DNA from: a virus
Taxonomy: Duplodnaviria; Caudoviricetes
Strand: one strand, 5' to 3'
IMG/VR virus record: IMGVR_UViG_3300019874_000002
Location: 54,720-118,719 of that record
Length of the DNA stretch: 64,000 nucleotides
In this document: piece after piece, positions 6,158-44,408 of the stretch
Layout of the letters: each line of letters opens with the position of its first letter
Position numbering within the stretch: the stretch's first letter is position 1
Position numbers and translations under genes: made by a program
The notes under the pieces: generated by a model
Seen by the model: the letters and a program-made list of their open reading frames with translations, nothing else
The model's database searches: none
Told to the model about the DNA's origin: nothing

Positions 6158-8259
6158 TACGCAATCACCACATCGGAAGCATTCATCCGCGCAATCTGAC
6201 CATCGAGAACGCTGAAATTAGCTGCTGGAGACAAAACTCTGCAATCAGCGACACCAGGCACTGATTTAACAAGCCTTATAACCTCTGAAAGCAGCACTGC
6301 TTTGCCCATACCCAATCCGTTAACATACGCTTGCACCACGCTCTGAACCGTCGATGCGAGCGCAGCATCCGCCACACCTGACACAGAGACAACTTGGATA
6401 ACGATCGTCGGAGTTACCACCGTCGGAATAACAACTTTACATTGCGTACCTAATGAGCGAATCCCTGGAAAATTATCCAAATCGGTCTTGTCGCCATTCA
6501 CCAAGCGCTGAGCATATGCAGCGAGCCCCCTAGAGTACGTGTAAGCACCCACAGAACCCAGCGCATTATCGTCAGCGGCAATGAGAGAATCGTGAATCCC
6601 TAAAGCTACGGTCAATTCCAAATCACCATTTGATTGATTAAAAATGTAATCGGTGTCAGGAATCAGAGGATCGTTTGCAAAATTAAAAATCGCATACGAC
6701 CCAAAGGCTGGAGTAGCTCCGATCGCAGACAGCGTCAATCTAATAACAGAATTGCTCACAATTGAATAGAACTGATCATCGCCTGCTTTCATCACAAAAC
6801 CAGCCCACTGATTCACAGTCCACACTTTGGACGAATCCTCGAGAAAATTGGCACCGACCAAAGTCGCGACACCGCTCCCATTCGTCTCACTCTTGAAAAG
6901 TCTCGGCGTTCTTTGAGCAGCTGGCGATTGCACCTTGAAAAACGGGCCGTACGCATGAAGGCTTGACCTTCGATCTCCAATCCTAGCGTCAGAGATCAAT
7001 ACGTCGCGCCCAGTCTTTATCTCTGAATCAATTGTAAACGTCGCTGTGCCGTCTGAAATATACAGCAACGATTGCCCAGGAGCCACAGGCTCTACCGTCT
7101 CAGCGAAAGCGATGATCCGATTGCTAAACGGATCCTGCTGTCCTGCGACTAACGTCTCAATCGAGAGAGCTGTACCTCGGCTCAAGCTTTGAATGAATGA
7201 AGAAATCCTGTTGTTGTATGTATCATCATCTTCGCGGTCTGTGCCACGTGTTGCGGCATTTGGGTTTGTAATTGTCGCATTGGCGAATGGCTCGGACTGC
7301 CATTGCGTTATCGTGTTAGACCCTACTTTAGTCTGAACACCAGCAGCATCAGACTCCATATTAATCAATCCAGTTACCAATTCCCCATCGAATAGAAATG
7401 CTGTCGCTCCAACCGTTCTAAACAGAACCCTGGTTGACGAAGCTGACTCAGGCACAAAGCCAATCGTTCCAGATGCGATAGGTCGGTCAGACCCAAAAGT
7501 TGACAGTGTCACGTCTGAATTGATTGCGTGTGCAAACGTCGTCAACGCACCCAAGGTCAATACTGTGCCGACACGTGTAAACGTCCTCAGCTCTCTACGA
7601 ACCGTGTCTCGCTCAAAGATTACGGATCCTGACAACGGCCAATCTCCTTCAGTTCCAGAGAGGATCTGACAGGAGCCAGCAGCAACGCCTATCGCAACAG
7701 TGATAACAGATTTAGTAGCTGTCGTTTCTACGGAACCAACCTGCAAATGAGGATTACGCAAACCAGTTGACGGAACCACAACTGTAAAAATCACGCCGAC
7801 TCTCGTATAGGTTATCGATTCCTCGCGCAGCGTACCTCGCTCAATAATCAATGATCCTGACGCTGGCCATCCAGTTGCGTCAGTAACAGAGAATGAAGTG
7901 ATTCCCTGGACTGTGTCCGCACCCATGAGCGCTGTTTTCCTCGTCGACCCATCGCCAACAACAATTTGAGTAATGCTCGTTTGTGCCTTCCTACGTCGCA
8001 TTGTCGAAAATACAACGGACCCAAAATCCTCAGCACGACGGTCTAAGTCATCACCTTTACAATTGCCTCGGAAAAACAAATCAACAAGCTTCCCAATTTG
8101 AACGTATTCGTCCGCATGCTGCAATGCGGATGCTTCAAGCTGCGTTCTGTCGAGAGAGCCAACATTCAAATCAGTATCAGGCCCAAGCTGCGCTCGATGC
8201 GTCGCAAACATCTGCGCTTGAATCTCAGCCTTAGTTTTTACACGAAACGCAGTAGGCAT
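6157..8259 (-). CDS. Baseplate J-like protein
   Basis: TDLNVGSLDR, GDDLDRRA, TNPNAATRGTDREDDDTY...SLSRGT, YVNGLGMG...VPGVAD motifs. Confidence 0.85.
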   Translation of the reverse strand: MPTAFRVKTKAEIQAQMFATHRAQLGPDTDLNVGSLDRTQLEASALQHADEYVQIGKLVDLFFRGNCKGDDLDRRAEDFGSVVFSTMRRRKAQTSITQIVVGDGSTRKTALMGADTVQGITSFSVTDATGWPASGSLIIERGTLREESITYTRVGVIFTVVVPSTGLRNPHLQVGSVETTATKSVITVAIGVAAGSCQILSGTEGDWPLSGSVIFERDTVRRELRTFTRVGTVLTLGALTTFAHAINSDVTLSTFGSDRPIASGTIGFVPESASSTRVLFRTVGATAFLFDGELVTGLINMESDAAGVQTKVGSNTITQWQSEPFANATITNPNAATRGTDREDDDTYNNRISSFIQSLSRGTALSIETLVAGQQDPFSNRIIAFAETVEPVAPGQSLLYISDGTATFTIDSEIKTGRDVLISDARIGDRRSSLHAYGPFFKVQSPAAQRTPRLFKSETNGSGVATLVGANFLEDSSKVWTVNQWAGFVMKAGDDQFYSIVSNSVIRLTLSAIGATPAFGSYAIFNFANDPLIPDTDYIFNQSNGDLELTVALGIHDSLIAADDNALGSVGAYTYSRGLAAYAQRLVNGDKTDLDNFPGIRSLGTQCKVVIPTVVTPTIVIQVVSVSGVADAALASTVQSVVQAYVNGLGMGKAVLLSEVIRLVKSVPGVADCRVLSPAANFSVLDGQIARMNASDVVIA

Positions 8260-8275
8260 CTTGTCACCTTTTGAC

Positions 8276-10450
8276 TCACGAAAGCGGAATTCTAAAAAAC
8301 AATGTCTGCTGTGTCCTCACAGGTCTGGCAAAAAACTCAAAAAACAACGCTGTTCCTATATACGTAACCGACGAGCGTTCAATCGACGAAATGCGTGGAT
8401 CAGCTAGTAGAGATTGGCGAACATAAAACACATACATTGCTGCAGCATTTGGCTCAAATGGCCGACCTATAATATCTGACGTTCCGTATTCAGGGTTTGA
8501 TTTATTGGAACCTCGTGTCGTTTGCAAACACAACGCAATCGCTTGCTCCAAATTCTCCAATCCAGACACCGTCTGCGTTTGATTGCGCGGACCAAACACC
8601 ACATCAATCAAACCTTGAGAAAACGTTGCCAGCATATCAACGCCAAAAGCTACCGTCTCTGGTGTTGATGGTCTGCGCAATGGGAGCATATCCAATCGCA
8701 ATTCAAACGCATCTCCCACCGCAGGCGAAGATGCGTACGTCCTATTAACTGTCAACGTATTGACGTCATTTGCAACAACGATACGCTTTTGTCCTAGCAA
8801 CGCTCCACTCGTAAACTCCAGCGTAAACCCAACCCACATGTCCGATCGCCAGGGGTTTTTAATGGAATCGTTATTGGCAAAAACAGCATCAAGGTCGGTC
8901 AACGCTACAACGATGCTACCGCTAACCGTAGCTGAGGATCCGTCCAACGGAATGGCCGTACTCAGTGACACAGCATCCTGTGTCGAAGGAACAAAGATCT
9001 GCTCTCCCCACGCAATCGTTCCAAAAGGTTTATTTCTCTTATCAGAGACAATGAACGGCGCCCGCAATTGGTTTGCAATCACCAATTCCACGAAGCGCCG
9101 TGCGTCACCAAGAACCCTCTGCGCAACATCAAATATTGTCTCTCCGGTCAAAACGAATTCTGCTCTCAGAGCAGACATCGCGACCATTTGCTCGATGTCC
9201 CCCACCAAGCTTAACCCAGACGTTCCAATAAATGGACTCACCGCCGGAGAACCGGATACGTCGCTTTCTTGAAAGAAATTACTTTTGACACCTTGAACCG
9301 CACGAGGCTGGGTGTATTTTTTATTCTCATCCGCAAATTCTTGCCCTGGCGTAGATCCATACGTCGCCAAATGGTGAGACACCAAGCCTTCCGTTAAAAA
9401 CCTCGTCTCAAGGATCCACTCATTGACATCCGCCCTAAAGGCTTCTGGTGTTACACCAGTATACGAGTCTTCCAAACCGATTAGCGCACTGTATACTTGT
9501 TTGTACAAATTCAACGGTACGTCCAAGACAGCGCGGCGAATTGACGCTACGTCTGCAAAAAACGATTGGACCTTCGTAATCGCGGTAATGACTCCTTGCA
9601 GCTTCAACGTAAGAACACCGGTGCTAAACCGTTGCACAAAGCCCTTTGCGCTAGCCGCAAGCTGCACCAAACGTGTAATCGCTTTACCAGCTACTGAATC
9701 GAGAGAGGTGCTCACTGGGTTACGCAGCTGCTTCAATGCGTCGCTCCCACGGTCTCTATCACCTACGCCCAAAGACCTAGCGTCACTCCCTTGATTCAAT
9801 GCTTGAACACGTTTCTGAGACGGCTCTATGCAATCAAATGCGATATCATAATTGTAACCAAACCTCGTCCGATCCATTCTGAAATGCTTCAATTCTATCA
9901 TCCAAAATTCATCACCTTTGAAATCCAAATAGTGCAATTGGATGTTTTTCCCAGCGCGCCTCTCTGCCATAAATTGCCGAAATAGCCTGCGAAGATGATA
10001 AAACTCGTAAAATCCAGACTGCTTCTCTCGCTGGCGCAATGCTAATCCAAGGTTCAGATTGCTCTGATCGTTCGTCTGGCTAATCGTTGGACCTTGCATG
10101 TGCGTCGCGTACGGTGCAATTGGAGGCAAAAGACCTGTGGTGCCTCTAATAGCTACTGATTTAATCAAGCCTCCTCGTGACTCGACAAACTTTCCTCCAC
10201 CTTGTGAAAAAGCCGTATCCGTTGCTACAGGCTCGTCAAATGAAATCGATTGAGGATTCAAATTCAAAAGATGGATGTCATCTGGCTGCGGATTTCCAAA
10301 TCCTGTTTTTCCGCTCTGGTTCGGCGCAGCATTGCCACTGTAATCAACCGTAGCTGAGCGATCCAATAGAAAGCCATACGCAAACGTTTGCGCCGCCCAA
10401 TTTTCAAGGGGCGGCATCTTCGTGGTTTGATCATCGCTATTATCAGCCAT
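8276..10450 (-). CDS. Baseplate protein (tube-initiator-like N-terminus, LysM-like segment, gp25/GPW-like C-terminus)
   Basis: LNPQSISFDEP; GETIFDVAQRVLGDARRFVELVIANQL (LysM-like); GLENLEQAI...PEYG...LLADPRI (gp25-like). Confidence 0.65.
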   Translation of the reverse strand: MADNSDDQTTKMPPLENWAAQTFAYGFLLDRSATVDYSGNAAPNQSGKTGFGNPQPDDIHLLNLNPQSISFDEPVATDTAFSQGGGKFVESRGGLIKSVAIRGTTGLLPPIAPYATHMQGPTISQTNDQSNLNLGLALRQREKQSGFYEFYHLRRLFRQFMAERRAGKNIQLHYLDFKGDEFWMIELKHFRMDRTRFGYNYDIAFDCIEPSQKRVQALNQGSDARSLGVGDRDRGSDALKQLRNPVSTSLDSVAGKAITRLVQLAASAKGFVQRFSTGVLTLKLQGVITAITKVQSFFADVASIRRAVLDVPLNLYKQVYSALIGLEDSYTGVTPEAFRADVNEWILETRFLTEGLVSHHLATYGSTPGQEFADENKKYTQPRAVQGVKSNFFQESDVSGSPAVSPFIGTSGLSLVGDIEQMVAMSALRAEFVLTGETIFDVAQRVLGDARRFVELVIANQLRAPFIVSDKRNKPFGTIAWGEQIFVPSTQDAVSLSTAIPLDGSSATVSGSIVVALTDLDAVFANNDSIKNPWRSDMWVGFTLEFTSGALLGQKRIVVANDVNTLTVNRTYASSPAVGDAFELRLDMLPLRRPSTPETVAFGVDMLATFSQGLIDVVFGPRNQTQTVSGLENLEQAIALCLQTTRGSNKSNPEYGTSDIIGRPFEPNAAAMYVFYVRQSLLADPRISSIERSSVTYIGTALFFEFFARPVRTQQTLFFRIPLS

Positions 10451-10453
10451 ACG

Positions 10454-10735
10454 TCACACGATTGTTCCGGTACCGGTTCCGGTGCCTGGACCAGACAAAC
10501 CGAGACCTGTCGTTACTCCAGATACAGCAATCACAGCAACAGAGCTGTTCACAATAGCGAACGTCTGAATGTGGAGCACAATAGCTCCGCACATCGCTTC
10601 CATCATTTGTATTCTATACGCGCTCAATTTAGCGTCAATACTATCCTGAGATTCACCTGGAGATATGGACGGCTTAGCGACAGCATCAACTGCCTCAATA
10701 ACCTGCTGACCCATGATATTACCGTCCATCGCCAT
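10454..10735 (-). CDS. Small baseplate/spike-associated protein
   Basis: Likely start ATG 10735 just after the upstream stop; ends GTGTGTGTIV. Confidence 0.5.
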   Translation of the reverse strand: MAMDGNIMGQQVIEAVDAVAKPSISPGESQDSIDAKLSAYRIQMMEAMCGAIVLHIQTFAIVNSSVAVIAVSGVTTGLGLSGPGTGTGTGTIV

Positions 10736-13316: not shown

Positions 13317-15508
13317 TTGTGTTTCGCTGGCGTGTCTCCAGGAGCTGGTTTCCTGGATTCTACTGCATGACGCTGCACCTCTTTATGTGCGTCAATACCA
13401 CTATCAGTCTTGTCCACAATCGTAATCTTTATATTCTTCGCGTTATCCAACGCCCCTTGCGCTTGAGCATTCACCAGCTTGTAAACCGTCTTATACATTT
13501 CCTCAAATGACACCGGTGCTCGATGCAATTGAGATTGAGCTGTGTCCAAAGCTTGTTTCTCGATACCAACACCTCCGTGGTTAAGCTTTGTCAACCTCAG
13601 GATATCGGTGTCGCTCCACTTCAAACCATACGCTTGCGCGTTCTCCTTGGCGACCTTTGAGTATTTGCCCACCAATTTTGCGCCCCACATCATCGCAGCG
13701 GATGGATCTTTCGACAAATTCTTATGCTCGCCTTCAGTCATTCCCAAACCGCCAGCCTCGGAATCCGCAAATGATGTCTTTCCATGCCCACCCATAATCT
13801 GGAACAAACCACGCTCATTCAAATTCGTTACCTGCGAATTGTCTCCTCCAGACTCCTCACTAATCCACGCTTGCAGAAACGACGGTGGAACCCCCATCTT
13901 TCCAGCGTAATCATTTATTTGATTGCTCAATGATGTTACTTTATTTGGATTACCAACCCAAGGATTAACCTTCCTCATTGCGCCAGCTTTTACGTCCTCT
14001 TCCGTCGACAGTCCAAATCCCTCACGAATCTTCCGGACCATATTTGCAAAACCAGTCTTGGATGATTCTGCGTTCACTTGCTGCCGATGCAGGCCGATCA
14101 AACCCTCTTTCTCTGGCGCATTCACCGCCGCTGTAAATTGAGCGGTACTCCCTTCGATGTCTACCGTCGAGCCTTGCCCTGAAGCGAGATTGTCCATTAT
14201 CAATTGAATCTTCGCCTCGCCCATTCCTGTAAGCAGTGCCAAACCTCCAACGATCCGCGCCTTCCCTGCAGCATTGGCTTTCTTGTATTCCGGCAACGCT
14301 CTCTGAAAATTCGTACTAATCAAATCCTCATGGCTCACACCACCAACTGTATCGAGTCCTTTCGCCAAAGCTAGTTTAGCCTCGAAAAACGTTTTACCAC
14401 GCCCAAACCCAGCCGCAGCCAACGCTGTCATTTGAGTATACCCGGTTTGGCCTTGGGCTAAACCTTTCAAAGACTGGTCCATTCCTTGAGCGGCTGCGGT
14501 ATTACCTCTGAACTGAGAACCCAATTGAGATATGAACATAAACCGATCAGCTGTCGCTTTAACATCCGTTGTCGCTTCCGTGTTCGCCTCTATTGCGCCG
14601 GACAGCTGGTCCATCACCTCGCCAAGCCGACCACGCCCAATCCCCTCACCAACCTGCAAGCCAAACGCGGCACCAAACAGCTTTGTTTGATCGTCGCCTT
14701 TGCCAATCGTTCCAGTCCGATAACCAGCACTCTGCAAATTCATCATTTGGCTTCCAATGCCAAACTCGTTCTCACCGCGCATGATACCTGCGATACCTCT
14801 GTCATCGCCTTGGCGCCGACTCATCTGCGTTTGCAGAGACGAAAACCTATCCGAATTGAATCCTAATTGCTTCCGCTCCGAATTTACTAGGTCTCTTGGA
14901 TCTAATAGCTGATTTGCGCCACCAACACCTCCAACCTGGTACCCTCGCAATGCAGCCTCTTTGACACGATCATCTGCGTCCAAAGCTTGAATCGCCACGC
15001 CACTAATAGCGCTAAAAATTGGAGCTAGTTGTGGAGCCAACATATTGGCAATCGAATTGCCAAGCTGCATCCCTCCTTGCAATGAACCACCAGAGAATGC
15101 GTAATTACCTCCAGCCGTAATGCCTTGACCAATCCCCTGTACTGTTTTATGGAATTGGTAATCCCTGCGCTGGCGTCGGAGGTCGCCAGCCTCTGTAAGC
15201 TCGGCACTCCCTCCAAAGCGACCGCGATTGCGTTCAAAGCGATCTGCGCGCGCAATATCTCGTTTCTGCCGCTCAACCTTCAAAAGCTCAAGCGCAATCT
15301 TGTGCTGCGCCTCAAGCTCTTTCGTGGTTTTAGCAACTGGCGTTTGACTCCACGATTGACCAGCTACTGATTTAATACCCATCACGCTCGCAAGCGAAGC
15401 GCCGAGCTTTGCAAAGCGAGATTGCGCACCCTCCGCCATCTTGTCCACGTCTTTAAGAAACGCAGGCACATCGGCGTCAATTACAAATGTTGCGTCAGAA
15501 TCACTCAT
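13313..15508 (-). CDS. Tape measure protein with C-terminal lytic transglycosylase (SLT) domain
   Basis: Ala/Gly-rich helical body; SLT-like motifs ISEESGG, GLFQI, LNHGG; follows tail chaperones. Confidence 0.8.
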   Translation of the reverse strand: MSDSDATFVIDADVPAFLKDVDKMAEGAQSRFAKLGASLASVMGIKSVAGQSWSQTPVAKTTKELEAQHKIALELLKVERQKRDIARADRFERNRGRFGGSAELTEAGDLRRQRRDYQFHKTVQGIGQGITAGGNYAFSGGSLQGGMQLGNSIANMLAPQLAPIFSAISGVAIQALDADDRVKEAALRGYQVGGVGGANQLLDPRDLVNSERKQLGFNSDRFSSLQTQMSRRQGDDRGIAGIMRGENEFGIGSQMMNLQSAGYRTGTIGKGDDQTKLFGAAFGLQVGEGIGRGRLGEVMDQLSGAIEANTEATTDVKATADRFMFISQLGSQFRGNTAAAQGMDQSLKGLAQGQTGYTQMTALAAAGFGRGKTFFEAKLALAKGLDTVGGVSHEDLISTNFQRALPEYKKANAAGKARIVGGLALLTGMGEAKIQLIMDNLASGQGSTVDIEGSTAQFTAAVNAPEKEGLIGLHRQQVNAESSKTGFANMVRKIREGFGLSTEEDVKAGAMRKVNPWVGNPNKVTSLSNQINDYAGKMGVPPSFLQAWISEESGGDNSQVTNLNERGLFQIMGGHGKTSFADSEAGGLGMTEGEHKNLSKDPSAAMMWGAKLVGKYSKVAKENAQAYGLKWSDTDILRLTKLNHGGVGIEKQALDTAQSQLHRAPVSFEEMYKTVYKLVNAQAQGALDNAKNIKITIVDKTDSGIDAHKEVQRHAVESRKPAPGDTPAKHK

Positions 15509-16000
15509 GATTTATCATAGCTATCATCAAAGCCACCAACCAAACTAGACAAAAAGTCTGCGCTCTCATTTGCAGGAACAGGCAGCTTACTCGGTTCTGC
15601 CTTCAAACGCGATGCAGCAATTTCTGGAAATTGCTCCTCGTCACTACGTTTGGTATACGCTTTGAAGCGTTTCAAGAAATCAGGATCAACGCCAGCATCC
15701 CAATCAATCTCGTCGAAGCGACCTTCCGCTCTCTTCTTTTCCCAATCGTCTATTATCGGATCGCCAGTCTTAAATTGAACATTTGTCGTATCTTTGCTTG
15801 GGAAAGCTTCGTTCGGATCATCTTCAATCGCATACATGAAATACTCTATCTGCAACTCTTCTAGAGTATACGTTTGAAGCACCGGATCCTTTAATGGCCT
15901 CTTATACTTCTTGCACCACCACCATTGCAGCTCATCGTGTGCTAATCGAGCTGCAGCGACTGCTCTCAGCTTTTCGTAATCATTTTCCCACAGGCTTAAG
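15505..16000 (-). CDS. Tail assembly chaperone, frameshift-extended C-terminal part
   Basis: Frame is open upstream of the track's GTG (15882) into the previous gene and encodes WWCKKYKRPLKDP there; no ATG/RBS of its own. Confidence 0.6.
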
Positions 16001-16405
16001 AAACGACTGCTGAAACGCGAGCACCTCCAAATAAGCTCGCTGCATTGGTTCTGAATCGTACATCTTGGTATTAAACCACGGTGGAGATTGAATCACGCAC
16101 ACAGAACAAACGGCCATCCACTCGTGCAATAGCGCCGTATTCCTGTCGATAGACGACGGTGGTTTGTCTTCGCGCAATTCCGCCATCATCGTGCCGATAC
16201 GCGCGCGTTCCTCGATGTTTGGCCGTTTGATTGTAAATTCTCCAGACTGCTTCACATCGTCTTCGTCGAGCCAATCCATGAAAAATCGCTTCGTGTAACG
16301 AACATCCTTCGCCTTCGCGGCACCCTCTGGCGTGATATCTCTAATCTCTATGCGATCTTTAGGTTTCTCTGCTGTCGCCTCTTCTGGCTTCTTCTCTTCT
16401 TCCAT
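15980..16405 (-). CDS. Tail assembly chaperone
   Basis: Between tube and tape measure; GEFTIKRP...PPWF motifs. Confidence 0.7.
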   Translation of the reverse strand: MEEEKKPEEATAEKPKDRIEIRDITPEGAAKAKDVRYTKRFFMDWLDEDDVKQSGEFTIKRPNIEERARIGTMMAELREDKPPSSIDRNTALLHEWMAVCSVCVIQSPPWFNTKMYDSEPMQRAYLEVLAFQQSFLKPVGK

Positions 16406-27488: not shown

Positions 27489-28438
27489 ACTTCACACTGA
27501 TGATCCATCAAAGCTCGAACGCTGTATGTAATATCGTCAGACATTGACTTTTTAGTCGACGCTATAATCTTTCCATTCGCATCAAATGCAAATCCAGCAG
27601 GCATCTCGTGCAATTCGCATTGACAACCAGGGTGCACTACACCAATAACAGGTCGCCATTCAGTCCTCCCTGCACGTTTTGGGTGAACGGCTCTACGACC
27701 GTAATTAGTTCCGTTGTTAGCCAACTCTGACAGCCTAAACAGACGTGGTTTACGGCCGTTCGTGTACAGCATTCTACAAAATCTACAGGCGTCTGGTTGA
27801 ATCGTTTTATAAACCAGCGGATCAAACCCATCCGCAGCTATCCCAAGAGCCTTCCCGTGCTCCTTAGCATTATGTAATTCGGTAGCTACAATCAACGCCC
27901 AATCGCGTTGCGTGTCTTTCAATTTCTTTTTGAACCTACGCTCAATCTGCTCTTTAGATGATCGCCTTGCGATACCTAAAGCAATCTCGTGCTGCACTAT
28001 CCCCAAAGCCTCATGCCTAAGCTTCGTCGCTTCTTCGTGCGTAGATTGTTCAAAATCATTAATCATCGACATCGACAGATTTCCGATCAATCGGCCAACA
28101 TGGTCTTTGGTCGCATTAATCGCATCCAATTCGTGTTGTGAGAACTGAGGCGGCGCTGTAGCGACAAACAGCCAAAATTTCTCCGGTGACATCCGCGCCA
28201 ATGACAGGTCATTCTTTGGCGCGCTCGCAGCCATTTTACCAACCGTGTGCGCTGCCTGAATTGCAACCTGAGCGTGCTCGATGCTCCCTTGGCGCAGGAT
28301 ATTATTGCGAACCAACCGATCGTAATCGTCCTTAGAAACTGCGCCTGGACCTAGCACTTCAACAGCAAGCGCAAGGTGATGGTCTGCAATCAATTGCCTG
28401 ACCTTCTCGCGAGCCAAATCGCTAATTGGCTTAGCCAT
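27485..28438 (-). CDS. MuF / SPP1 gp7-like head morphogenesis protein
   Basis: RDW..IV.TE, VYK...PDACRFC, HPGCQC; start ATG 28438 (GGAG upstream) preferred over 28501. Confidence 0.8.
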   Translation of the reverse strand: MAKPISDLAREKVRQLIADHHLALAVEVLGPGAVSKDDYDRLVRNNILRQGSIEHAQVAIQAAHTVGKMAASAPKNDLSLARMSPEKFWLFVATAPPQFSQHELDAINATKDHVGRLIGNLSMSMINDFEQSTHEEATKLRHEALGIVQHEIALGIARRSSKEQIERRFKKKLKDTQRDWALIVATELHNAKEHGKALGIAADGFDPLVYKTIQPDACRFCRMLYTNGRKPRLFRLSELANNGTNYGRRAVHPKRAGRTEWRPVIGVVHPGCQCELHEMPAGFAFDANGKIIASTKKSMSDDITYSVRALMDHQCEV

Positions 28439-34584: not shown

Positions 34585-36675
34585 TTATTGTGCCACAGGC
34601 TGACCTGGCTTTGAAGACTTCACAGGCTTTACTTCTGACGTTCCAGAAGAAGGCTGACCTTCCAGTACCTTCCCGGTGATCACATCGAACAGCAACCCAA
34701 AGTAATCACCATCTAATCCATGAGCATCACCAAATTCGGCCAAATGTGTACTCATAAACGATACAAACTTCTGTCTCGCATCTTCGCCATATTTCTTCTG
34801 CATCTGCATAACGATTTTCTGAATCACTGCACGTTGTACATTCAATGCAGAACAAAACTCTGCGACATTTAATGTATGTTTTGGAGCCTGTGGTTTCGAA
34901 GGATCAGGTGCACGCACATCCTTCTGATCTGGTTTTTCCGGATGGTCTGCAGCAATAGGTTCCTGGTCTGCATTTGGAGATGGCAAATCAGGATGTGGTA
35001 ATTTCGTTTCTTCTTTTTTGCCAGCTTGCATTTCTGCAGGATTACCGTTTGGTTGCTGTGACGATTGAGGTTTAGCTCCCTGCTCTCCTGGATAATTATA
35101 TCTCACCTGGCCACCACTACCGAGCTTTTTGGAGCTAGCTCCAATGACCTTTGAGCCAACCTTTTTATTACTTGCTTCACGTTGATCGTCGGACATCTTA
35201 GGCAATGCCTTTACCAGCACAGCCTTCCTAAATGGAACAGTCATCCGCTTGCCTCCAATCGATAACGCGACTGAATCGAAATTAATGTCGACAGGCTCAA
35301 AACGCTCCAATGGCGTTTTGTCTTTCTTTCCGATATATGCAAGCGTTACGTGCGGTGTAAAACCATGAACACTTCCGGACGTCAGTCCAGCTTGGCGCAA
35401 CAGCTCCATCAAACTAGAATGCAATCTCGTAATGTCTGGTGAATCAACAGACAAATAAATAACATCCTTACCTTCCGACGATTCACTAGCACTGAACCGC
35501 CCAACGCCGCTCAATGAAGCCTTGATACCGAGCGCTAGACTTGTAAATTTACGAACAACAGCAGCCGCGGCTTTCTTCCGCTTCTCGGTCAATCCTTTAC
35601 CAAGATACGCGAGCGTAATGTGCATCGACTCTGGGGACTCACCGCCGCGGATAGCGATTTTATTTGCAATCTTGTCCGGTAAGTGCAGCGCGATCATCGT
35701 ACCGCTGTGCGCTCCGCCTTTAATAATCAGAGTCGGCATCAACTGGTTAGCTTGTGCTAAAATCTTTACGTCTACGTCGTCATTTAATAGCTCTAAAGCT
35801 TCAACCAACGTAACCCATTTCGCTGCTTCAACCTCTTCACCGTCAACACGAGTGACAACACTCCTAGGTGTCATAACGTAGTAATCGCAAGTACCGCCGT
35901 CATTATGTGTAAACCGCCCAAGTTTTCTATCGATTTCGCACGGTAGTCCTGTTTCTTCTTTTACCTCGCGCAACGCCGTCTCGACATTATTTTCGTACTG
36001 ATTTGGATAACCTTTTGGAAACGTCCAATCATACCCACCAAATCCATTAGTAGGTTTAATCAACAAAACCTTCCCATCAGAATTCATTACAATCCCACCC
36101 CCACAAACTCTCGTCGTGTCTTTATCTAAAACACGATTTACAAATGCGCCCTGCATCAACTGTCTGTAATTACCAGGAACGCGCTCCACCGTGTCGTCTC
36201 CAGACGGCCCCCAAACTCGTGTTGTAGATTCTGGCGCGTCTTCTAATTCTGCGGTCGCATCTCCGTACTGAGGAAGTGGAGACTGTCTAGACCCAATCTC
36301 TTGATTGAAAACTTCCTGTTCTCGGTCCGCCCTCTCTGCATCAAACTTCGACGTCAATCGTTGCTCTGCCTCTTCCAATTGCGTACAGAAATCCAATATC
36401 GCCACGTCGTCACTATCAAGAGGTTTTGCTGTAAAACCATTACCGTTTAATGCAAAAAGGAACGGCCGATCGTGAGAATACAAAACACCTCGGTAGCCTA
36501 GCTTCGTACGCTCGACAAATACTCTGTCAATTGGTTTCACTGTCGACAGTTCGCGAACGTCATCTCTAATCACGTCGTAAATACCAACCGGCGCTGCCTC
36601 CAAATCACCACGAACTGGTTTGGCGTTTACAATCAGTAGTTTTGGATGCACTGAAAGCATCGTGCTATTTTTCAT
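34585..36675 (-). CDS. Nudix hydrolase + 2H phosphoesterase (2'-5' RNA ligase/Acb1-like) fusion
   Basis: Nudix box GYPNQYENNVETALREVKEETGL; two HxT motifs HITLAY and HVTLAY. Confidence 0.88.
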   Translation of the reverse strand: MKNSTMLSVHPKLLIVNAKPVRGDLEAAPVGIYDVIRDDVRELSTVKPIDRVFVERTKLGYRGVLYSHDRPFLFALNGNGFTAKPLDSDDVAILDFCTQLEEAEQRLTSKFDAERADREQEVFNQEIGSRQSPLPQYGDATAELEDAPESTTRVWGPSGDDTVERVPGNYRQLMQGAFVNRVLDKDTTRVCGGGIVMNSDGKVLLIKPTNGFGGYDWTFPKGYPNQYENNVETALREVKEETGLPCEIDRKLGRFTHNDGGTCDYYVMTPRSVVTRVDGEEVEAAKWVTLVEALELLNDDVDVKILAQANQLMPTLIIKGGAHSGTMIALHLPDKIANKIAIRGGESPESMHITLAYLGKGLTEKRKKAAAAVVRKFTSLALGIKASLSGVGRFSASESSEGKDVIYLSVDSPDITRLHSSLMELLRQAGLTSGSVHGFTPHVTLAYIGKKDKTPLERFEPVDINFDSVALSIGGKRMTVPFRKAVLVKALPKMSDDQREASNKKVGSKVIGASSKKLGSGGQVRYNYPGEQGAKPQSSQQPNGNPAEMQAGKKEETKLPHPDLPSPNADQEPIAADHPEKPDQKDVRAPDPSKPQAPKHTLNVAEFCSALNVQRAVIQKIVMQMQKKYGEDARQKFVSFMSTHLAEFGDAHGLDGDYFGLLFDVITGKVLEGQPSSGTSEVKPVKSSKPGQPVAQ

Positions 36676-39600
36676 TTTCGCACACGCTTTCTAATGACGA
36701 TAGCCTTTGCCACTACAGGAGCGTCCTTGCCAAAGACTTTACGAACTGACGACGCGACGCGCGTCAATAGTCCAGGCTTCTTTCCTTTCACTGGAGGCGC
36801 AGCATCAAATTCTCCTTGAGGTAGTTTCTTGGCAGATTCACGCATATTGTGCTGCGTGTCTATTGCCTGCTTTGCTTCCCTATTGCGGCGTTTCTCCTCT
36901 TCAGACATATTTGCATTTTTTGCATGCGCGCGGTCCACTGATTCTTGGCGCTCCCTAGCCTTCCGTCGGTCGTCTTCGTAAAAGTGTTGCTGCTTCTGTG
37001 CTTGAGTCATCCCGGCTAGTGGGTCAAACGGCTTGTGCACATAACGAGGTCTTTCCTTTGAAAGCTTCTCCAATGGAGACAACTCTCTTGGTTCCTCAGG
37101 CTCCTCACGAATTCTTTGATTGTTTCCAATCACAAAATCTGGCGTATCTGCGTACTGCTGTTCCACAGAAGCCGATACGGCCGGTTCATTCTCCTCGTCG
37201 CTACCAATCCGATGGTGCCCAATACGTGTAATCGCTTCACGCTCCACCGCGGCACTGGCATCTGCGCGCGCTTGATTCTTTGCTTCTCGTTCATGATAGC
37301 GTGCAGCGGCTTTGTCCTTTGATTCTTTGTAAAACGCGGCACGATTCTCCAGGTCTTTTTGCGTCTCAACGTACGTAGTTTTGACCTCGCCACGACGTTT
37401 AATACGCTCAGCCTCCAACTCTTTCTTTACTTTTACCTTCGCTTCTTTCACCGCCGTCACAACGGCTTTATGCTCGTCATGCTCACCAGCAAGCTTTGCA
37501 ATCTTCCGGTCTAATGAGCCATGCTTCTTTTTGTCGACAGTTTTCTTTTGTGCCTTGAGCGCAGCCATCTTCTCTTTAATCGTCTTCATCTGGTCACGGT
37601 GCGCAGCCTCTGTATAGCTGTGAGTCTCAAGTTGCTTTTGATGTCCACGCAAACGCTCTCTTGCGTCAACAACATGGCGTGCAACATTTGAACGTTCCGA
37701 GTCTTCTGCGCCTTGCTTTCCATAAACAACATCACCATGGTCATTACGGTACCAAATACCGCCACGCGACCCCGGTTGCTTGACGATATTAATGTGCTTT
37801 AGGATATCGCTCAGAGCATCATATGCGTCAATGCACTCTGCAAATGCCTTTGCTAGATCGCTCCCCTTCGCAACCTTCAAAGCCTTCCGTTGCTCCTGCT
37901 CAAACTCCACAATGTGCAAACGATTCTCGTGCTGCCTATACGCAGCATGTTGCCTCGTTTTCCAGGTTGCCAAATCATTACTCGTCGGCATATCGCGCAC
38001 CGCCAAACGCGACATGTACTCTTTAACCATTGGATGCGCCCCACCAAGAGCATTAGCGGCGGCAGTAAATTGAGCTACCGCTTCTTGGTCTGCACCTTTG
38101 GTATTATGCAGTTTAACAGCTGCTTCGTGCAACTGCACAACACCGACTTTTTCATGCCAATTCGTATTACCTTTAGCATCCGTCACCCACGCACCAACAT
38201 CTTGCGCGGCCTGCATTGTACCATGCGCTTGTTCATGCACTGGTGCCAGATTAGGAATCTGCTTGAGATTCTGAACTAGCTTGTAATGCTCATTCAAAAC
38301 CTCTGCTTTCTGCTGCAGCTGCTTTGGGAGCGTTACATTCTTTATTTGCGCTGGCAGATTCAAATCATTTGCGATGCCAAGCTTTACAGCCAAATCTCGA
38401 TTGGAACCTGGTTGCTTAAAAAACGTAATCGCTGGATGCTCGTGAGCACGAACATGTTGAACCTTCGGCTCCGCCAGCTTGGGCATTTGAGCCACAGGAA
38501 CGGCCGTCCGATCCTCAATCTCTCGACGATTGAGTTTTGCCACCTTCGACTCGAGACGAAGCCACTTTTCAACCACCAATCCATCCGGTGTCAAACCGCC
38601 TTGTCGCGTCTTCAATCTATTATTTACGTGCTCTAAAGCTGCGGCGTACCACTTCTCCAAATGGTATCCTTGCTTATCAACAGAGAGTGTCCCTAGCAGC
38701 GCCTTCTTTCCTTTGGGCAGCTCTACAGTGACACCAGCAAGCTTTGTGGCAATTGATGAAACACCATGCTCGCTACCAGTCCACGGACGGCCCCAATGCA
38801 ATCCAGCTTTGCCGTACTTCTCTTGATGCCTCGCGCGTTGCTCATTGAACGCGTGCTCTTGTGATTTATCAGGATGCGAGTCGTCATCGTCCATCCACAA
38901 ACGCGATTCTAACGCATAACGCATATGTGGCGGTAGATCGGCGATAGCTTCTCGAATAATCTTCTTTGCAATTGGCTCGTAGTGATGCAGCTCAAAATGC
39001 TCCCTCGGAGAAATCATCTTCGGAGCTTTGTACTCCTCCTCCTCGTGGAGATCTTCAAGCGCTGTTGCCCCAAGCTCAATCGCGGCTTGCTTCGCAAACT
39101 GCTCGAGATGGTTCTTAATCGCGTTCTCTGCGCGCAAATCAAAACGGCTGTACTGGCCTTTTGGCTCGTCATTTGGAACGTATTTGTTCGCTTGATCGAG
39201 GAGCACTGCGACAGCTTCATTAAACATGTCACGCTCGCGATCATACATATAACGCTTAGCAGATGACTCCGCCAACTTTCCAGCATAACCCTCCCTATGC
39301 GTTACCTCATCCATTTCTCTATAGATGTCCGTCGAAGCGAACACACTACCAAACTTGCGAGTCCACCTTCGGATAAAAGGCGCCCATTCCTTCAACAACT
39401 GCTCACGAACGCGTTTGCTCTTATTGTCAGGGTTCCAAATTCCCAATGTAATGAGCGTCGTCAGCGGCCGACCTTCTGTTCGTGAAAGCTCATGTTGCAA
39501 TTGCGCAGGAGAATCAAACTTATTCACCGCCCACATTGGAAGCGGACTGATCTCGCGTTTACCTACAACCTCGTCGAATTGACCTTCGCGATCAGCTCGA

Positions 39601-40383: not shown

Positions 40384-42435
40384 TTAATTCAAATCAATCT
40401 CAAAAAAGTCCATATCAATTGATTTCTTGACACTGCCCAATTGATCATGGTGTGCAGACACAATATTTTTCGCACCTGACAGTCCGTCCGCTTCACCGAG
40501 CTTTTGGAACGTTTGACCTCCCCCAGGTTTATAGCTCACAGATGCACGATTAACGACCTTATCGTGACTGATCGAGTACATCCCATGAGTCGCAATACCT
40601 GCGTGATAATCAGTTGCAGGTGACTTCATCGTTCGTTTGAAACTGACAGTACCGTGAAATGGTTTGGGGCCAGAACCAGAACCGCCTTTATACAAATCGT
40701 TATCTCTCACAGATGAATGCACGCTGGACTCCCAATCGTTTTGCTTCAGGAAACGAATGTTGTCGTCCTCTTCGTGAGATTCGTCTTGAGGTTTTGAACC
40801 TCGCGCCATTGCACCAAGCTTTTTACCAGCATCTTTCGCCGTCGGAGATGGCCCGTCTCCAGCATTGCCAAAACGGTTTGCGTACGGTTGCTCTGGAGGC
40901 TGTTCCTCGTCACCACCTTCATCACCACCAGGAGCGCCCATTCCAGGCGGCATTCCGCCAGCACCTCCGCCTTGCTGTTCTGCCATTTCCTTCTGCATGA
41001 GATACTGAAGGTAAACAGGATTGGCGATCACATCACCATGCTTCACTGGACCGACATCATCCAATGCGCGCAGCTCATTGATAGTGACGTGCGTTTGACC
41101 TTGCTTCTGGCGCAGCTCTGCAGCTTGTTCCTCACTCTTCGCATCGAGACCTACGAGCACAAACTCAAAATCCTCATCGATACGGTCAACGATGTTCCGA
41201 TTGATGAAGGTTTCAAAGAAGCGAAGGAGAGGCTTTAATCCTCTGTCCTTTGAAAGCTTCTGCTGAGCTTCGTTATTGCCCATGAACACTGGTTGCTGAC
41301 CACCAGCGCTCCCACGCAAATCAAAGTTAATCTCGCTTGGATCCATCTGATACAGCGCACAAGCCACCTTCACCAGGTACTCCACCCACATCTGGTAACC
41401 CATCTCCGTATTGGACATCTGCATCTGCTGGAATTCGACACCGTCCGAATTAATGATCGGTGTCCTCCAGGCATTGGTAATACCTCCAACCTGAGCCATC
41501 CATTGGCGCTTGAACGCGTCGTATTTCTCCTTCGAGATATTACCTTTCAGATTCAGGATGCCTTTAATCGTGCTTCCCTGCGAGAACGCTTTCTTATTCC
41601 ATTCCTGCGCCCAAATATGCGCCGTCACAATTTGAATCAAAATCTGCGGCTCTGGAAAGCCGTACCCTCCGACCTTTAGATTAGACCTTGGATTGCGTAT
41701 CCCGAAGGAAAGGGTTCTCGGCGTGAAATCGCGCAAAATCTCGCCATTAATCATCTGCACGTACATCACATGCGATTTCTCTTGAGAGCGCGCAATCGGA
41801 TGGCCCTTCGGATTCGTCTTCGTTTGATCTGCAATCCTAACCGTAGACGGATCCATTACAAGCGTTTCATGAAGCTTGCCACCACGATTATAGACGTTCT
41901 CCATGTTGACTTGGTCATACGTCAATGAATCGCGCGTCATCATCTTCATTGCATCAATCAATGGAGCGCGTGTAATATTCTTCTCAGCGCCCATATGTTG
42001 AACGTAGTAACCAACCTTCTTCGAACGGTCACGTTCGCCGTTGTCCATCCTACGATTGCGCTTGTCCTTGTCTTTGAAGCGCACCATATTGCCAACGCTG
42101 TACTTATTCTCTTGCTCCTGGCAAAACGTACTCATCTGATTATTACGTGTTGTCACGATTGAGCCAAGCAGCGTGTCTTGCTCTGTCATTTGACGAAGCG
42201 TCTCGTATGTAATCCTCGCTGGATTGGACCTGTAGCCCATTCCAATAGAATCAATCAGTGAAAAAGGATCGGCGTAGAACCCTTGCGGTTTCGCTTCTTG
42301 CGGCGGAGGTGTCGCCAGATCGTGCAAGGATTTTGCAATCTTCTGAAACAGCTCTCCAGTAGCTTCGTGAATTGCGTGCTTGACCTGAGGCTGTAATCCA
42401 GCTTCGATCTCTGCAATTGGCGTCTGCTCCACCAT
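40384..42435 (-). CDS. Portal protein with C-terminal extension
   Basis: TYETLRQM, RDSLTYDQ, DPSTVR, RNPRS...GYG..E, FSQG...KGIL, NAWRTPI, DPSEINF, SKDRGLKPLL, TINELR. Confidence 0.92.
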   Translation of the reverse strand: MVEQTPIAEIEAGLQPQVKHAIHEATGELFQKIAKSLHDLATPPPQEAKPQGFYADPFSLIDSIGMGYRSNPARITYETLRQMTEQDTLLGSIVTTRNNQMSTFCQEQENKYSVGNMVRFKDKDKRNRRMDNGERDRSKKVGYYVQHMGAEKNITRAPLIDAMKMMTRDSLTYDQVNMENVYNRGGKLHETLVMDPSTVRIADQTKTNPKGHPIARSQEKSHVMYVQMINGEILRDFTPRTLSFGIRNPRSNLKVGGYGFPEPQILIQIVTAHIWAQEWNKKAFSQGSTIKGILNLKGNISKEKYDAFKRQWMAQVGGITNAWRTPIINSDGVEFQQMQMSNTEMGYQMWVEYLVKVACALYQMDPSEINFDLRGSAGGQQPVFMGNNEAQQKLSKDRGLKPLLRFFETFINRNIVDRIDEDFEFVLVGLDAKSEEQAAELRQKQGQTHVTINELRALDDVGPVKHGDVIANPVYLQYLMQKEMAEQQGGGAGGMPPGMGAPGGDEGGDEEQPPEQPYANRFGNAGDGPSPTAKDAGKKLGAMARGSKPQDESHEEDDNIRFLKQNDWESSVHSSVRDNDLYKGGSGSGPKPFHGTVSFKRTMKSPATDYHAGIATHGMYSISHDKVVNRASVSYKPGGGQTFQKLGEADGLSGAKNIVSAHHDQLGSVKKSIDMDFFEIDLN

Positions 42436-42441
42436 TTGTTT

Positions 42442-43569
42442 TCACCCAATGCGACTGACGTTTGGTGCTGATTTACTCAAGTCATAGTACGGCGCTTTAT
42501 CAATTGGATGCTCGTCAGGATTCGCTCTGATGTCTTTCACCTTTGCACGCAATGTCTGAGCTGCAGCATGATTGCCTTCCTTCTCCGCATCACCAGCAAC
42601 AGCTTCCATCGCACCAACGCCGCGAGCATGTGCTTCGTGCTCGGCTGCAGCGTGTGAGTGATTTTGAGACATATTGCGATGATTCAAATGCTCGCTGTAA
42701 TGATTTACGTCAGGTGCGTAGTTACCAGTCCTTCGCTCTTGCGCCGCTGCAGCGTAATGCTTTGCTGATTCGCCTGCATGGTGCGTCGCCTTCTCCCTGT
42801 GGTACGCTGCAATGTCAATATTCTTTTCTGGCGTCAAATGGTGCCCAAGCTCTGTTTCAATCGGCGCCCAGTGCTCACCTGCAAACTTATGGTGAATTGA
42901 ATCAGACGCAGGACCCTCTTTAATCTCCGGTCCATACGATCCAAAACGAACGTGGTGTGTGTTCTTGATTTCGTGTCCACCAGACGTTTTGTCAACTGTC
43001 TTTTTTTCTCGTGCGCCTTCCTTCTTTATACGCGAACGCTCTTTGCTCTCTGCAGCCTTTGCCGCTTTGGCTTCGCGTTCCTCTGAAGGAGTTTGCTTGC
43101 CTTCACCCTTTGCTTTATGAGCTGCAGCAATATGATGGTGGAAGGCTCTGACCTTATCGCTATTGCTGTAGTTCAAAGCTTCTTTACCGTGGTGCTGCGC
43201 AGCGTCTGAGTGCTCCTCGGTTGTATAATCCTTCGCTGCACGACGGACATGACTCGCTGCATGTTCTGCCAGCTTTCCTTCGGCAGTCTTCTTCTGCAAA
43301 TTGACATGGCCTCTCATGTACTCTGTTGCCGATTCAGACGGAGCGTAAACAGCTTTTCCGCTCTTGGTGTGTCCAATCACCTTCCCTCCTCGAGACCCCT
43401 CACCATCTGCTTTAATCAGTAGCGACTTGACCACAGGAATTTTGGTTGTTTTCGCTGTCGATGCTGGCGTAGGATTGACTGTAGTTTTTCTGTTTGGCGT
43501 ATCAGGAAGAATCGGCGCCGCTCCTTGGCGAGTCGCTTTCGATTCACTTGATTCAGGCTTTGGCGTCAT
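42442..43569 (-). CDS. His/Ala-rich internal head protein (probably the -1 frameshift extension of the upstream gene)
   Basis: LLIKADGEGSRGGKVIGHTKSGKAVY; no clear RBS at 43569; frame open upstream to about 43710. Confidence 0.6.
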   Translation of the reverse strand: MTPKPESSESKATRQGAAPILPDTPNRKTTVNPTPASTAKTTKIPVVKSLLIKADGEGSRGGKVIGHTKSGKAVYAPSESATEYMRGHVNLQKKTAEGKLAEHAASHVRRAAKDYTTEEHSDAAQHHGKEALNYSNSDKVRAFHHHIAAAHKAKGEGKQTPSEEREAKAAKAAESKERSRIKKEGAREKKTVDKTSGGHEIKNTHHVRFGSYGPEIKEGPASDSIHHKFAGEHWAPIETELGHHLTPEKNIDIAAYHREKATHHAGESAKHYAAAAQERRTGNYAPDVNHYSEHLNHRNMSQNHSHAAAEHEAHARGVGAMEAVAGDAEKEGNHAAAQTLRAKVKDIRANPDEHPIDKAPYYDLSKSAPNVSRIG

Positions 43570-43616
43570 TACTTCGCGAATCGATTCGCGCGGAATACGT
43601 TGCGTAACACTGTGTT

Positions 43617-43659
43617 CGCCAGTAATCGCCTTTTGGACTACTGGCGTTTCACAAAAGGG
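43617..43659 (-). promoter_or_regulatory. -1 programmed ribosomal frameshift signal
   Basis: In-frame C CCT TTT (43659-43653), 6-nt spacer, 11-bp stem CGCCAGTAGTC/GATTACTGGCG. Confidence 0.7.
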
Positions 43660-44408
43660 AGCAATGCCTTTACCACAGGCTTCATCGAATTTGCCATCGG
43701 CGGCTTGGCGTTAATCGGAGCCAATTGACCTTTAGGTGTCGGCGAAGGTTCCACGACTGGAGGTGCTTTTTGACCACCTTTTCCATACACCCAATCTGGC
43801 TTTGTGCCTTTCTCGATTCCTGCAGCTTCATACGCATCCTCTCCAACATGCATTCCGCCAGCCTTTAGGAAATCAAGCACGTCCTCGAGATCGTATTTGC
43901 GCTGCTTGCGTGGAGCGAAATGCATATCGCGAAGCGATTTGGCGACCCTATACGCGAGCGGCAACGGCTTGCCATCTCGCATCCGATCTGCCATCTCTTG
44001 CCCACAGTGCCTGGAGACTTCTCCTTGCGATTGCCATCGGAATTCGGACTTCACCATATCGCGCGTAATATCGCCTGCGATACGCTGAGCAATCGTCATA
44101 TCCTCATCGCCCAACGTGACGCGCTTCATTTGAATCATCGGCTCCATCGAGCCATACTCGTTCATCGTGCCAGGACTTCCGTTAACGCAAGGCGTAGCCA
44201 AATCGTCAATCTCGTCAGGCCCAAGCTCTGCAAGAGGTGCATAACCATACTTACGGTCAATACCGCTACCGCACAAAGCTGGCGCAGTACCAACCTCACA
44301 GGCTCCACCCTTTGCGGCGGCATTACCATCGTAATGAACGCAGCCTTCACATTTGCTGTTTGGAGTGACTGGTGTGCGTTGAATACGCAACTCTTGCAGA
44401 TCCATCAT
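43638..44408 (-). CDS. Head-cluster protein with N-terminal Cys cluster
   Basis: ATG 44408 overlaps upstream TAA; C..C.HY...C......C; MVKS, VAKS, IEKG, VVKA sites. Confidence 0.6.
   Translation of the reverse strand: MMDLQELRIQRTPVTPNSKCEGCVHYDGNAAAKGGACEVGTAPALCGSGIDRKYGYAPLAELGPDEIDDLATPCVNGSPGTMNEYGSMEPMIQMKRVTLGDEDMTIAQRIAGDITRDMVKSEFRWQSQGEVSRHCGQEMADRMRDGKPLPLAYRVAKSLRDMHFAPRKQRKYDLEDVLDFLKAGGMHVGEDAYEAAGIEKGTKPDWVYGKGGQKAPPVVEPSPTPKGQLAPINAKPPMANSMKPVVKALLPFVKRQ

Follow-up and report, generated by a model that had tools for sequence, protein, structure and literature searches.

A Probable Programmed -1 Frameshift in a Cysteine-Rich Gene Upstream of the Portal Gene of a Herelleviridae-Like Soil Phage

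Overlapping reading frames upstream of the portal gene

Here, we describe a probable programmed -1 ribosomal frameshift in a gene located upstream of the portal gene of a tailed virus (Caudoviricetes; IMG/VR record IMGVR_UViG_3300019874_000002). The stretch of DNA analyzed, referred to as the window (64,000 nucleotides [nt]), consists of bases 54720-118719 of this 118,719-bp record, which is rated complete by CheckV, and positions are those of the window unless stated otherwise. The record originates from soil and has a G+C content of 49%, with nearly all genes carried on the minus strand. At the locus, a 256-amino-acid (aa) open reading frame (ORF), ORF-A, ends at a TAG codon in a region where the -1 frame is open as well, and the -1 frame runs on for 403 residues. 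The principal elements are the following.

43638..44408, minus strand: ORF-A, zero-frame product of 256 aa, starting at ATG 44408; Cys-rich N-domain, then a disordered linker ending ...KPVVKALLPFVKRQ
42442..43653, minus strand: -1 frame extension, 403 residues after F252, plus TGA
43345..43404, minus strand: GSRGG...G.V.Y tag, GEGSRGGKVIGHTKSGKAVY; only in the -1 product here, in frame after the N-domain in relatives
42445..42465, minus strand: C-terminal tail PNVSRIG, the usual C-terminus of the family, supplied here only by the -1 frame
40384..42435, minus strand: portal gene (PF04860, phrog_12), next downstream of the -1 frame ORF

ORF-A is preceded by a strong Shine-Dalgarno (SD) sequence, AGGAAGGA (-6.5 kcal/mol). 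Its AlphaFold2 (AF2) model shows a confident helical bundle at residues 100-195, with a low-scoring Cys-rich start and disorder from residue ~200. The extension begins with a Pro/Thr/Ser-rich linker, which is followed by a GEGSRGG...KAVY tag and a His-rich helical module, and it closes with a C-terminal tail ending ...KSAPNVSRIG. Modeled as residues 80-405 of the -1 product, it reaches a predicted local distance difference test score (pLDDT) of 82; in the model, the tag beta-hairpin leads into a helical bundle, with another small beta unit and then two very long helices following. Neither ORF matched Pfam or PHROGs, neither part found a match in PDB profile searches, and neither AF2 model found one in Foldseek; ESM Atlas gave sub-threshold leads only, e.g., HiPIP in 12% of one cluster with a score of 0.77.

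Anatomy of the slippery site

The first-pass annotation, made from the sequence alone, had proposed a canonical -1 signal here, with two products, a short one of about 256 aa and a fused one of about 655 aa. This proposal is supported by our computations with respect to register, spacer, hairpin, and the absence of an indel. The components of the putative signal, from 5' to 3' on the minus strand, are listed below.

43641..43710, minus strand: zero and -1 frames both open; the -1 frame opens after TAA 43713-43711
43653..43659, minus strand: slippery heptamer C_CCT_TTT, in X_XXY_YYZ register with ATG 44408 and TAG 43640
43647..43652, minus strand: 6-nt spacer GTGAAA, from heptamer to stem
43617..43646, minus strand: stimulatory hairpin with an 11-bp stem pairing 43646-43636 with 43627-43617, one pair being G-U (43638/43625)
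43628..43635, minus strand: hairpin loop CAAAAGGC, 8 nt
43638..43640, minus strand: zero-frame TAG stop, within the 5' arm of the stem
Predicted junction peptides of the 655-aa fusion: LLPFCETPVVQK; ALLPFCETPVVQK

The zero-frame codons on the minus strand read CTC CCT TTT GTG AAA CGC CAG TAG, so that the in-frame heptamer C CCT TTT at 43659-43653 reported earlier is borne out, as are the 6-nt spacer and the 11-bp stem with a single G-U pair that covers the TAG. On slippage, both tRNAs would re-pair cognately, the P-site Pro codon changing from CCU to CCC and the A-site Phe codon remaining UUU. From 43659, no stop interrupts the -1 frame for 405 codons, up to TGA 42444-42442, and this frame contains a 375-aa ORF starting at ATG 43569 (ORF-B), as had been stated; counted from 43710, it spans 422 codons. 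Slippage would thus join ORF-A residues 1-252 to 403 further residues, giving a 655-aa product in which ...ALLPF is followed by CETPVVQKA. Sequences of the type H_HH.U_UU.Y are among the most efficient heptamers in Escherichia coli (Sharma et al. 2014, PMC4066793), and C_CC.U_UU.U is listed as shifting at >0.1% without a stimulator and as underrepresented in genes (PMC4066793).

Folded alone, the hairpin has a free energy of -16.8 kcal/mol, while its 76-nt context folds at -24.9 kcal/mol, corresponding to a z score of -3.8 against dinucleotide shuffles and equalled by 1 of 200 of these. The stimulator is a simple hairpin, neither a pseudoknot nor a three-way junction. We observe no clear SD-like stimulator upstream of the heptamer, where a weak AAGG (43670-43667) is located just 7 nt upstream. 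The hairpin was also considered as an intrinsic terminator and rejected as such, because no T-run follows it on the 3' side.

Two further observations concern the immediate surroundings of the heptamer. An A_AAG tetramer occurs in register at 43668-43671 (minus strand), within the two-frame overlap. It is the most shift-prone tetramer in E. coli (PMC4066793), yet it is unlikely to be stimulated here because 20 nt separate it from the stem. In addition, seven nucleotides of the hairpin loop, CAAAAGG (43629-43635), are the exact reverse complement of CCTTTTG at the slip site (43652-43658, minus strand); by a rough estimate, a 7-nt match within an 8-nt loop has a chance probability of ~1e-4. The two stretches could form an alternative structure in which the slip site is masked. 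A full pseudoknot joining the loop to the slip site was discarded on presumed steric grounds, as the connecting loop would measure only 1 nt.

The motif PVV.K[AS][LI] recurs around the site, as PVVKALL at the end of ORF-A, as PVVQKA right after the shift, and as PVVKSLL in ORF-B before the tag. The first-pass annotation had pointed to VVQKA as a site added by the shift; PVVQKA is present, whereas nothing marks it as a cleavage site. A resembling sequence, PVVAKAIV, is found at the C-terminal end of a 1236-aa protein encoded downstream of the portal gene (36672-36740, minus strand), 15 residues from its C-terminus.

Rarity of the signal in the phage genome

We called 172 ORFs on the whole 118,719-bp genome and counted in-frame XXXYYYZ heptamers with Y being A or T. 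This search yielded 69 heptamers, among which the one described here is followed by an open -1 frame of 405 codons, compared to 80 codons for the next longest. It lies 15 nt from the zero-frame stop, and the 50 nt downstream of it fold at -17.9 kcal/mol, the second-strongest value of all 69 (mean, -9.2); only 2.4% of 13,169 background windows on the coding strand fold as well. CCCTTTT occurs in frame only once in the genome. The conjunction of a long -1 frame, nearness to the stop, and a strong fold is therefore far beyond chance, and no other site in this genome combines a heptamer, spacer, and hairpin with a long -1 frame.

Three other in-frame heptamers, all outside the window (GGGAAAC, AAAAAAG, and GGGTTTG at record positions ~32376, ~19534, and ~17379; minus strand), are located 3-33 nt from stops, with 70-80 open -1 codons and weak downstream folds. 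They are possible further recoding sites.

Initiation of the downstream ORF

An obvious alternative is that ORF-A and ORF-B are two independent genes. Under this explanation, the 375-aa protein would start at ATG 43569, possibly through re-initiation after TAG 43638, and the signal would be coincidental or serve some other function, e.g., in mRNA stability or processing. The arrangement around this start codon is as follows.

43567..43569, minus strand: ATG, first start codon of the -1 frame, 69 nt after the zero-frame stop; no SD sequence
43575..43590, minus strand: perfect 16-nt palindrome CGCGAATCGATTCGCG, ending 5 nt before ATG 43569

Automatic callers do annotate the 375-aa protein (P0003) from this ATG 69 nt past the stop, and short N-domain genes without the tag exist as complete genes in relatives (207 aa in L012; P0034 and P0040), both of which would fit two separate genes. 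Several observations argue against it. The -1 frame contains no ATG, GTG, or TTG for 48 codons after TAA 43713-43711. At ATG 43569, the anti-SD duplex amounts to +0.1 kcal/mol, compared to -6.5 for ORF-A, a genome median of -3.7, and a mean of -2.4 for internal ATGs; the start is thus below the internal-ATG background, in agreement with the earlier remark that ORF-B lacks a clear ribosome-binding site. The palindrome abutting the ATG would moreover occlude ribosome loading.

Homology extends the argument beyond the start codon itself. The -1 product matches the relative P0009 with an E value of 5e-22 from residue 19 (TQRIP), i.e., from 12 codons upstream of ATG 43569, so that the -1 frame is coding where only a shifted ribosome could read it. 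In relatives, the calls corresponding to ORF-B, P0009 (MIGHTKSGKP...) and P0004 (MYAPS...), begin inside the conserved tag, and those genomes therefore have no start upstream of the tag. Finally, ORF-B on its own would carry the family C-terminal tail without an N-domain, an arrangement seen in 0 of 76 homologues. Together with the genome-wide uniqueness of the joint signal, these observations make independent initiation very unlikely in our view.

Modular architecture of the pre-portal family

The N-domain of ORF-A (~200 aa; residues ~1-205) has 76 homologues, 17 of them with E < 1e-30, which begin at the same MMDLQELRI as ORF-A and share invariant columns at C20, C23, C37, C46, and H25. Wherever DNA is available (L012, L013/L015, L014, and L017-19), the N-domain gene is located between a homologue of the 145-aa gene and the portal gene, in the conserved order 145-aa gene, N-domain gene, portal, and 1236-aa homologue. 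The family is modular, consisting of the N-domain, zero to several GEGSRGG.VIGHTKSGK.(V/I)Y units, and a C-terminal tail of the type PNV[RK][KR][IL]G. Its minimal form, in L012, has 207 aa, with the N-domain leading directly into APNVRKLK, and P0034 and P0040 likewise represent short tag-less forms. Other members (P0035, P0036, P0038, P0039, P0042, P0044, and P0005) combine the N-domain and GSRGG modules in a single ORF. In L013, with a portal protein 63% identical to the one studied here, tblastn places the matches of ORF-A (from 5001) and of the -1 product (from 5730) in one and the same frame, within a single ORF that ends in PNVRRIG. In the phage studied here, the tag and the family tail are present only in the -1 frame, and the normal architecture of the family is therefore reached only by the shift.

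Within the same L013 gene (5650-5800), an internal PNVRKIG immediately precedes the tagged module, with the second PNVRRIG at the C-terminus. This gene looks like a short-form gene of the P0034 type that was extended by module accretion.

The three closest relatives of ORF-A, P0032 (234 aa), P0108 (270 aa), and P0109 (209 aa), share 73-76% identity with it and all end in ...PFVKRQ-stop as ORF-A does, while the 10-60 residues before this motif differ among them in both length and sequence. Constancy of PFVKRQ next to a linker that varies is the pattern to be expected if slip site, spacer, and stem arm are conserved at the nucleotide level. A further frameshift case may be P0033, which is 55-63% identical to ORF-A and ends in ...LPFVNRPQS. 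The longest contigs of P0009 and P0108 both measure 71,109 bp, which suggests that the two calls reside on one contig. The reading in which two products are made, also put forward in the first-pass annotation, thus gains support from the lack of an independent start, from single-ORF fusions in syntenic relatives, and from the PFVKRQ-stop of the closest relatives.

Viral contig scans with A1, P0005, A2, and P0009 returned no DNA of frameshifted relatives. The metagenome contig scan with A3 returned 6 loci, the shift being present in none of them, and the genome contig scan with A3 returned no frameshifted relative. An exact-pattern scan for the cassette had a single match, L020, which was rejected as a chance match in an unrelated AT-rich phage. 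No match to either ORF was obtained by tblastn against the phages collection, and a search with residues 1-85 of the -1 product matched only itself.

The mobility of the modules bears on a variant of the frameshift explanation, in which slippage evolved merely as a rescue for a mobile module that had inserted out of frame. Only the 655-aa fusion would then be functional, with the 256-aa form being a by-product and the ratio of the two being meaningless. Atkins et al. (2016, PMC5009743) describe such a course of events for the extension domains that phage capsid proteins carry, and the modules here are clearly mobile, appearing in many architectures. On the other hand, short tag-less genes that are complete in relatives and the accretion pattern of L013 suggest that both forms are viable, and the arrangement is kept across relatives sharing just 73-76% identity. 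We therefore consider it unlikely, though conceivable, that the shift serves rescue only.

Assembly accuracy and decoding

A broken ancestral ORF would also leave two adjacent frames, either through a real frameshift mutation, resulting in a pseudogene, or through a one-base assembly error in the T-run, with no recoding in either case. Many relatives have the fusion in one ORF, and one more base in the T-run would rejoin the frames, as expected under this explanation. However, the separate Logan assemblies of two runs of the source sample, with word depths of 19 and 26, both contain positions 43300-44000 in single long contigs with 0 substitutions and 0 indels. These 19x and 26x assemblies thus agree and exclude an error of one assembler. 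Moreover, three diverged relatives stop at the same PFVKRQ, the break falls exactly on an in-register heptamer with a strong hairpin 6 nt on, and the -1 frame remains open for 405 codons with conserved homology. A broken ORF is, in our assessment, very unlikely.

Other modes of decoding were rejected. TAG terminates 25 of the 172 ORFs, and the phage has no suppressor tRNA, which indicates the standard genetic code; stop-codon recoding was discarded on the same grounds, TAG being an ordinary stop. Transcriptional slippage was discarded because a run of four Ts is too short. No RNA run containing the stretch was listed.

Proposed mechanism and function

Overall, we consider it quite probable that ribosomes undergo a true programmed -1 shift at the end of the gene directly preceding the portal gene, with 256-aa and 655-aa products as the result. 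In this model, the majority of ribosomes would release the 256-aa protein, consisting of the Cys-rich N-domain and linker, at the TAG. When CCU occupies the P site and UUU the A site, the hairpin 6 nt downstream would resist unwinding, and both tRNAs would slip back by one base, after which the -1 frame would be read for 403 residues to produce the 655-aa fusion. The extension would supply the GSRGG...Y beta-hairpin tag, the His-rich helical module, and the canonical PNVxxIG C-terminus, all of which are missing from the short form. We infer that slippage occurs and that both products may be used in head assembly. The fixed ratio of the two forms and its effect on cargo stoichiometry, as suggested in the first-pass annotation, are a hypothesis.

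Several points weigh against this explanation. The frameshift is predicted here from sequence, and the conservation of the heptamer and the covariation of the stem in the PFVKRQ relatives were deduced from peptides rather than read in DNA. The shared contig of P0009 and P0108 is likewise deduced only from the equal length of their longest contigs, 71,109 bp. Both assemblies derive from one sample and would thus look the same if the sampled population carried a true mutation; the contig data likewise leave room for an infrequent true indel variant, though the four-T run is short.

The GSRGG.(F/W/I).....G.V.Y tag is not confined to the pre-portal gene. Two copies are found in the 1236-aa protein (residues 16 and 873; window positions ~40343 and ~37772, minus strand) and one in a 1463-aa helicase-like protein (residue 140; ~32848, minus strand), each copy being preceded by a.V.[KRQ]-type motif, and the post-portal protein of L012 (6573-9233) begins with this tag as well. 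A more elaborate role can be imagined, in which the frameshift doses an address tag. A constant minor fraction of the portal-adjacent N-domain protein would be made with the GSRGG...Y tag and helical module, as carried by the giant 1236-aa and 1463-aa enzymes, and these copies would nucleate or anchor the loading of those enzymes, as injected cargo, at the portal vertex, such that recoding sets the number of cargo docking sites per capsid. We regard this role as speculative and quite unlikely. If the tag is a capsid-loading address, the frameshift would link recoding to the packaging of injected proteins.

The locus represents a clean example in a family without known function that adjoins the portal gene. 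Automatic annotation splits the gene into two hypothetical proteins, here and likewise in relatives, and so hides the predicted 655-aa product and the recoded C-terminus. The GSRGG-tagged unit emerges as mobile; some phages carry it fused in frame, and in others it would be attached through slippage.

Genomic setting

Besides the pre-portal gene, the surrounding region encodes much of the virion structure, in the following order on the minus strand.

45030-44593, minus strand: 145-aa gene, followed by a small ORF
44408-43638, minus strand: ORF-A, followed by the -1 frame ORF (to 42442)
42435-40384, minus strand: portal gene, followed by genes for the 1236-aa protein, a Nudix/2H-phosphoesterase protein, a 436-aa protein, and the 1463-aa helicase-like protein
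Then, minus strand: two further genes, prohead protease, major capsid protein, and tail sheath

The portal protein shows 38-41% identity to portals of Bacillus SPO1-like phages (Herelleviridae), and the source is a 119-kb Herelleviridae-like soil myophage. Its sole tRNA gene, tRNA-Lys(UUU), is located outside the window at record position 27795-27868 (minus strand). Phage JL encodes two proteins upstream of its portal gene, gp88 and gp89; neither shows a detectable relationship to ORF-A or the 145-aa protein.

In a high-GC relative (L001), an insert of ~1.1 kb that resembles an intein interrupts the portal gene (7862-10543), with tblastn matches at 7961-8356 and 9440-10525. The insert starts with C and ends with HN followed by C. 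The pre-portal gene of L001 is a single 1331-aa ORF with the same module.

The tail sheath, tube, and 731-aa genes are located ~26 kb from ORF-A. Between the tail tube and 731-aa genes, we observe a pair of small ORFs encoding 141 aa and 125 aa (15980-16405 and 15505-15882, minus strand). This pair (15505-16405) is at the position expected of a tail-chaperone frameshift pair and is likely the G/GT of this phage.

Comparison with known systems

To our knowledge, a frameshift has not previously been described for this pre-portal gene family, and we know of few well-supported programmed frameshifts in phage morphogenesis genes, the tail-chaperone pair aside.

Several known sites resemble the one described here in part. 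The NS1' site of West Nile and Japanese encephalitis viruses has an identical heptamer, C_CCU_UUU (PMC11797035). That site, however, belongs to an unrelated RNA virus, acts on eukaryotic ribosomes, and is stimulated by a pseudoknot; the likeness is one of motif only. Signals of the dnaX and IS3/IS911 types share the combination of a heptamer and a 3' stem-loop 5-9 nt downstream, but differ from the present case, where no clear upstream SD-like stimulator is seen and the hairpin is simple.

The tail chaperone G/GT frameshift of phage lambda and most tailed phages (Xu, Hendrix and Duda 2004) involves, according to the accounts citing that work (PMC4276943 and PMC5009743), a -1 shift on X_XXY_YYZ near the end of the upstream ORF, as proposed here. 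In those accounts, two N-terminally identical proteins are made, and their ratio matters for assembly; the feature shared with the pre-portal gene would be the N-terminally identical pair. In contrast to G/GT, the gene described here is positioned between the 145-aa gene and the portal gene rather than between the tail tube and tape-measure genes, has no sequence relation to G/GT, and has a 403-aa extension that is much longer than the T domain.

The closest precedent is provided by frameshift-added extensions on phage capsid and tail proteins. Such C-terminal extensions are found in gene 10A/10B of T3/T7, Lactobacillus phage A2, and Listeria phages A118, A500, and PSA (PMC5009743), and Atkins et al. 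note that the reading frame in which mobile domains land, matching or shifted, differs from phage to phage (PMC5009743). In both cases, slippage near the 3' end of a morphogenetic gene yields, or is predicted to yield, a short and an extended product, and the extension is a mobile module that only part of the relatives carry in frame, the rest having it out of frame. The gene described here, however, codes for neither a capsid nor a tail protein and belongs to an uncharacterized Cys-rich pre-portal family. The predicted fold also differs from immunoglobulin-like (Ig-like) extensions as these are summarized in PMC5009743 (citing Fraser et al.), being helical with small beta-hairpins and having no Ig-like beta sandwich. 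The mechanism itself is thus known, while the gene family and the extension to which it would apply here are new.

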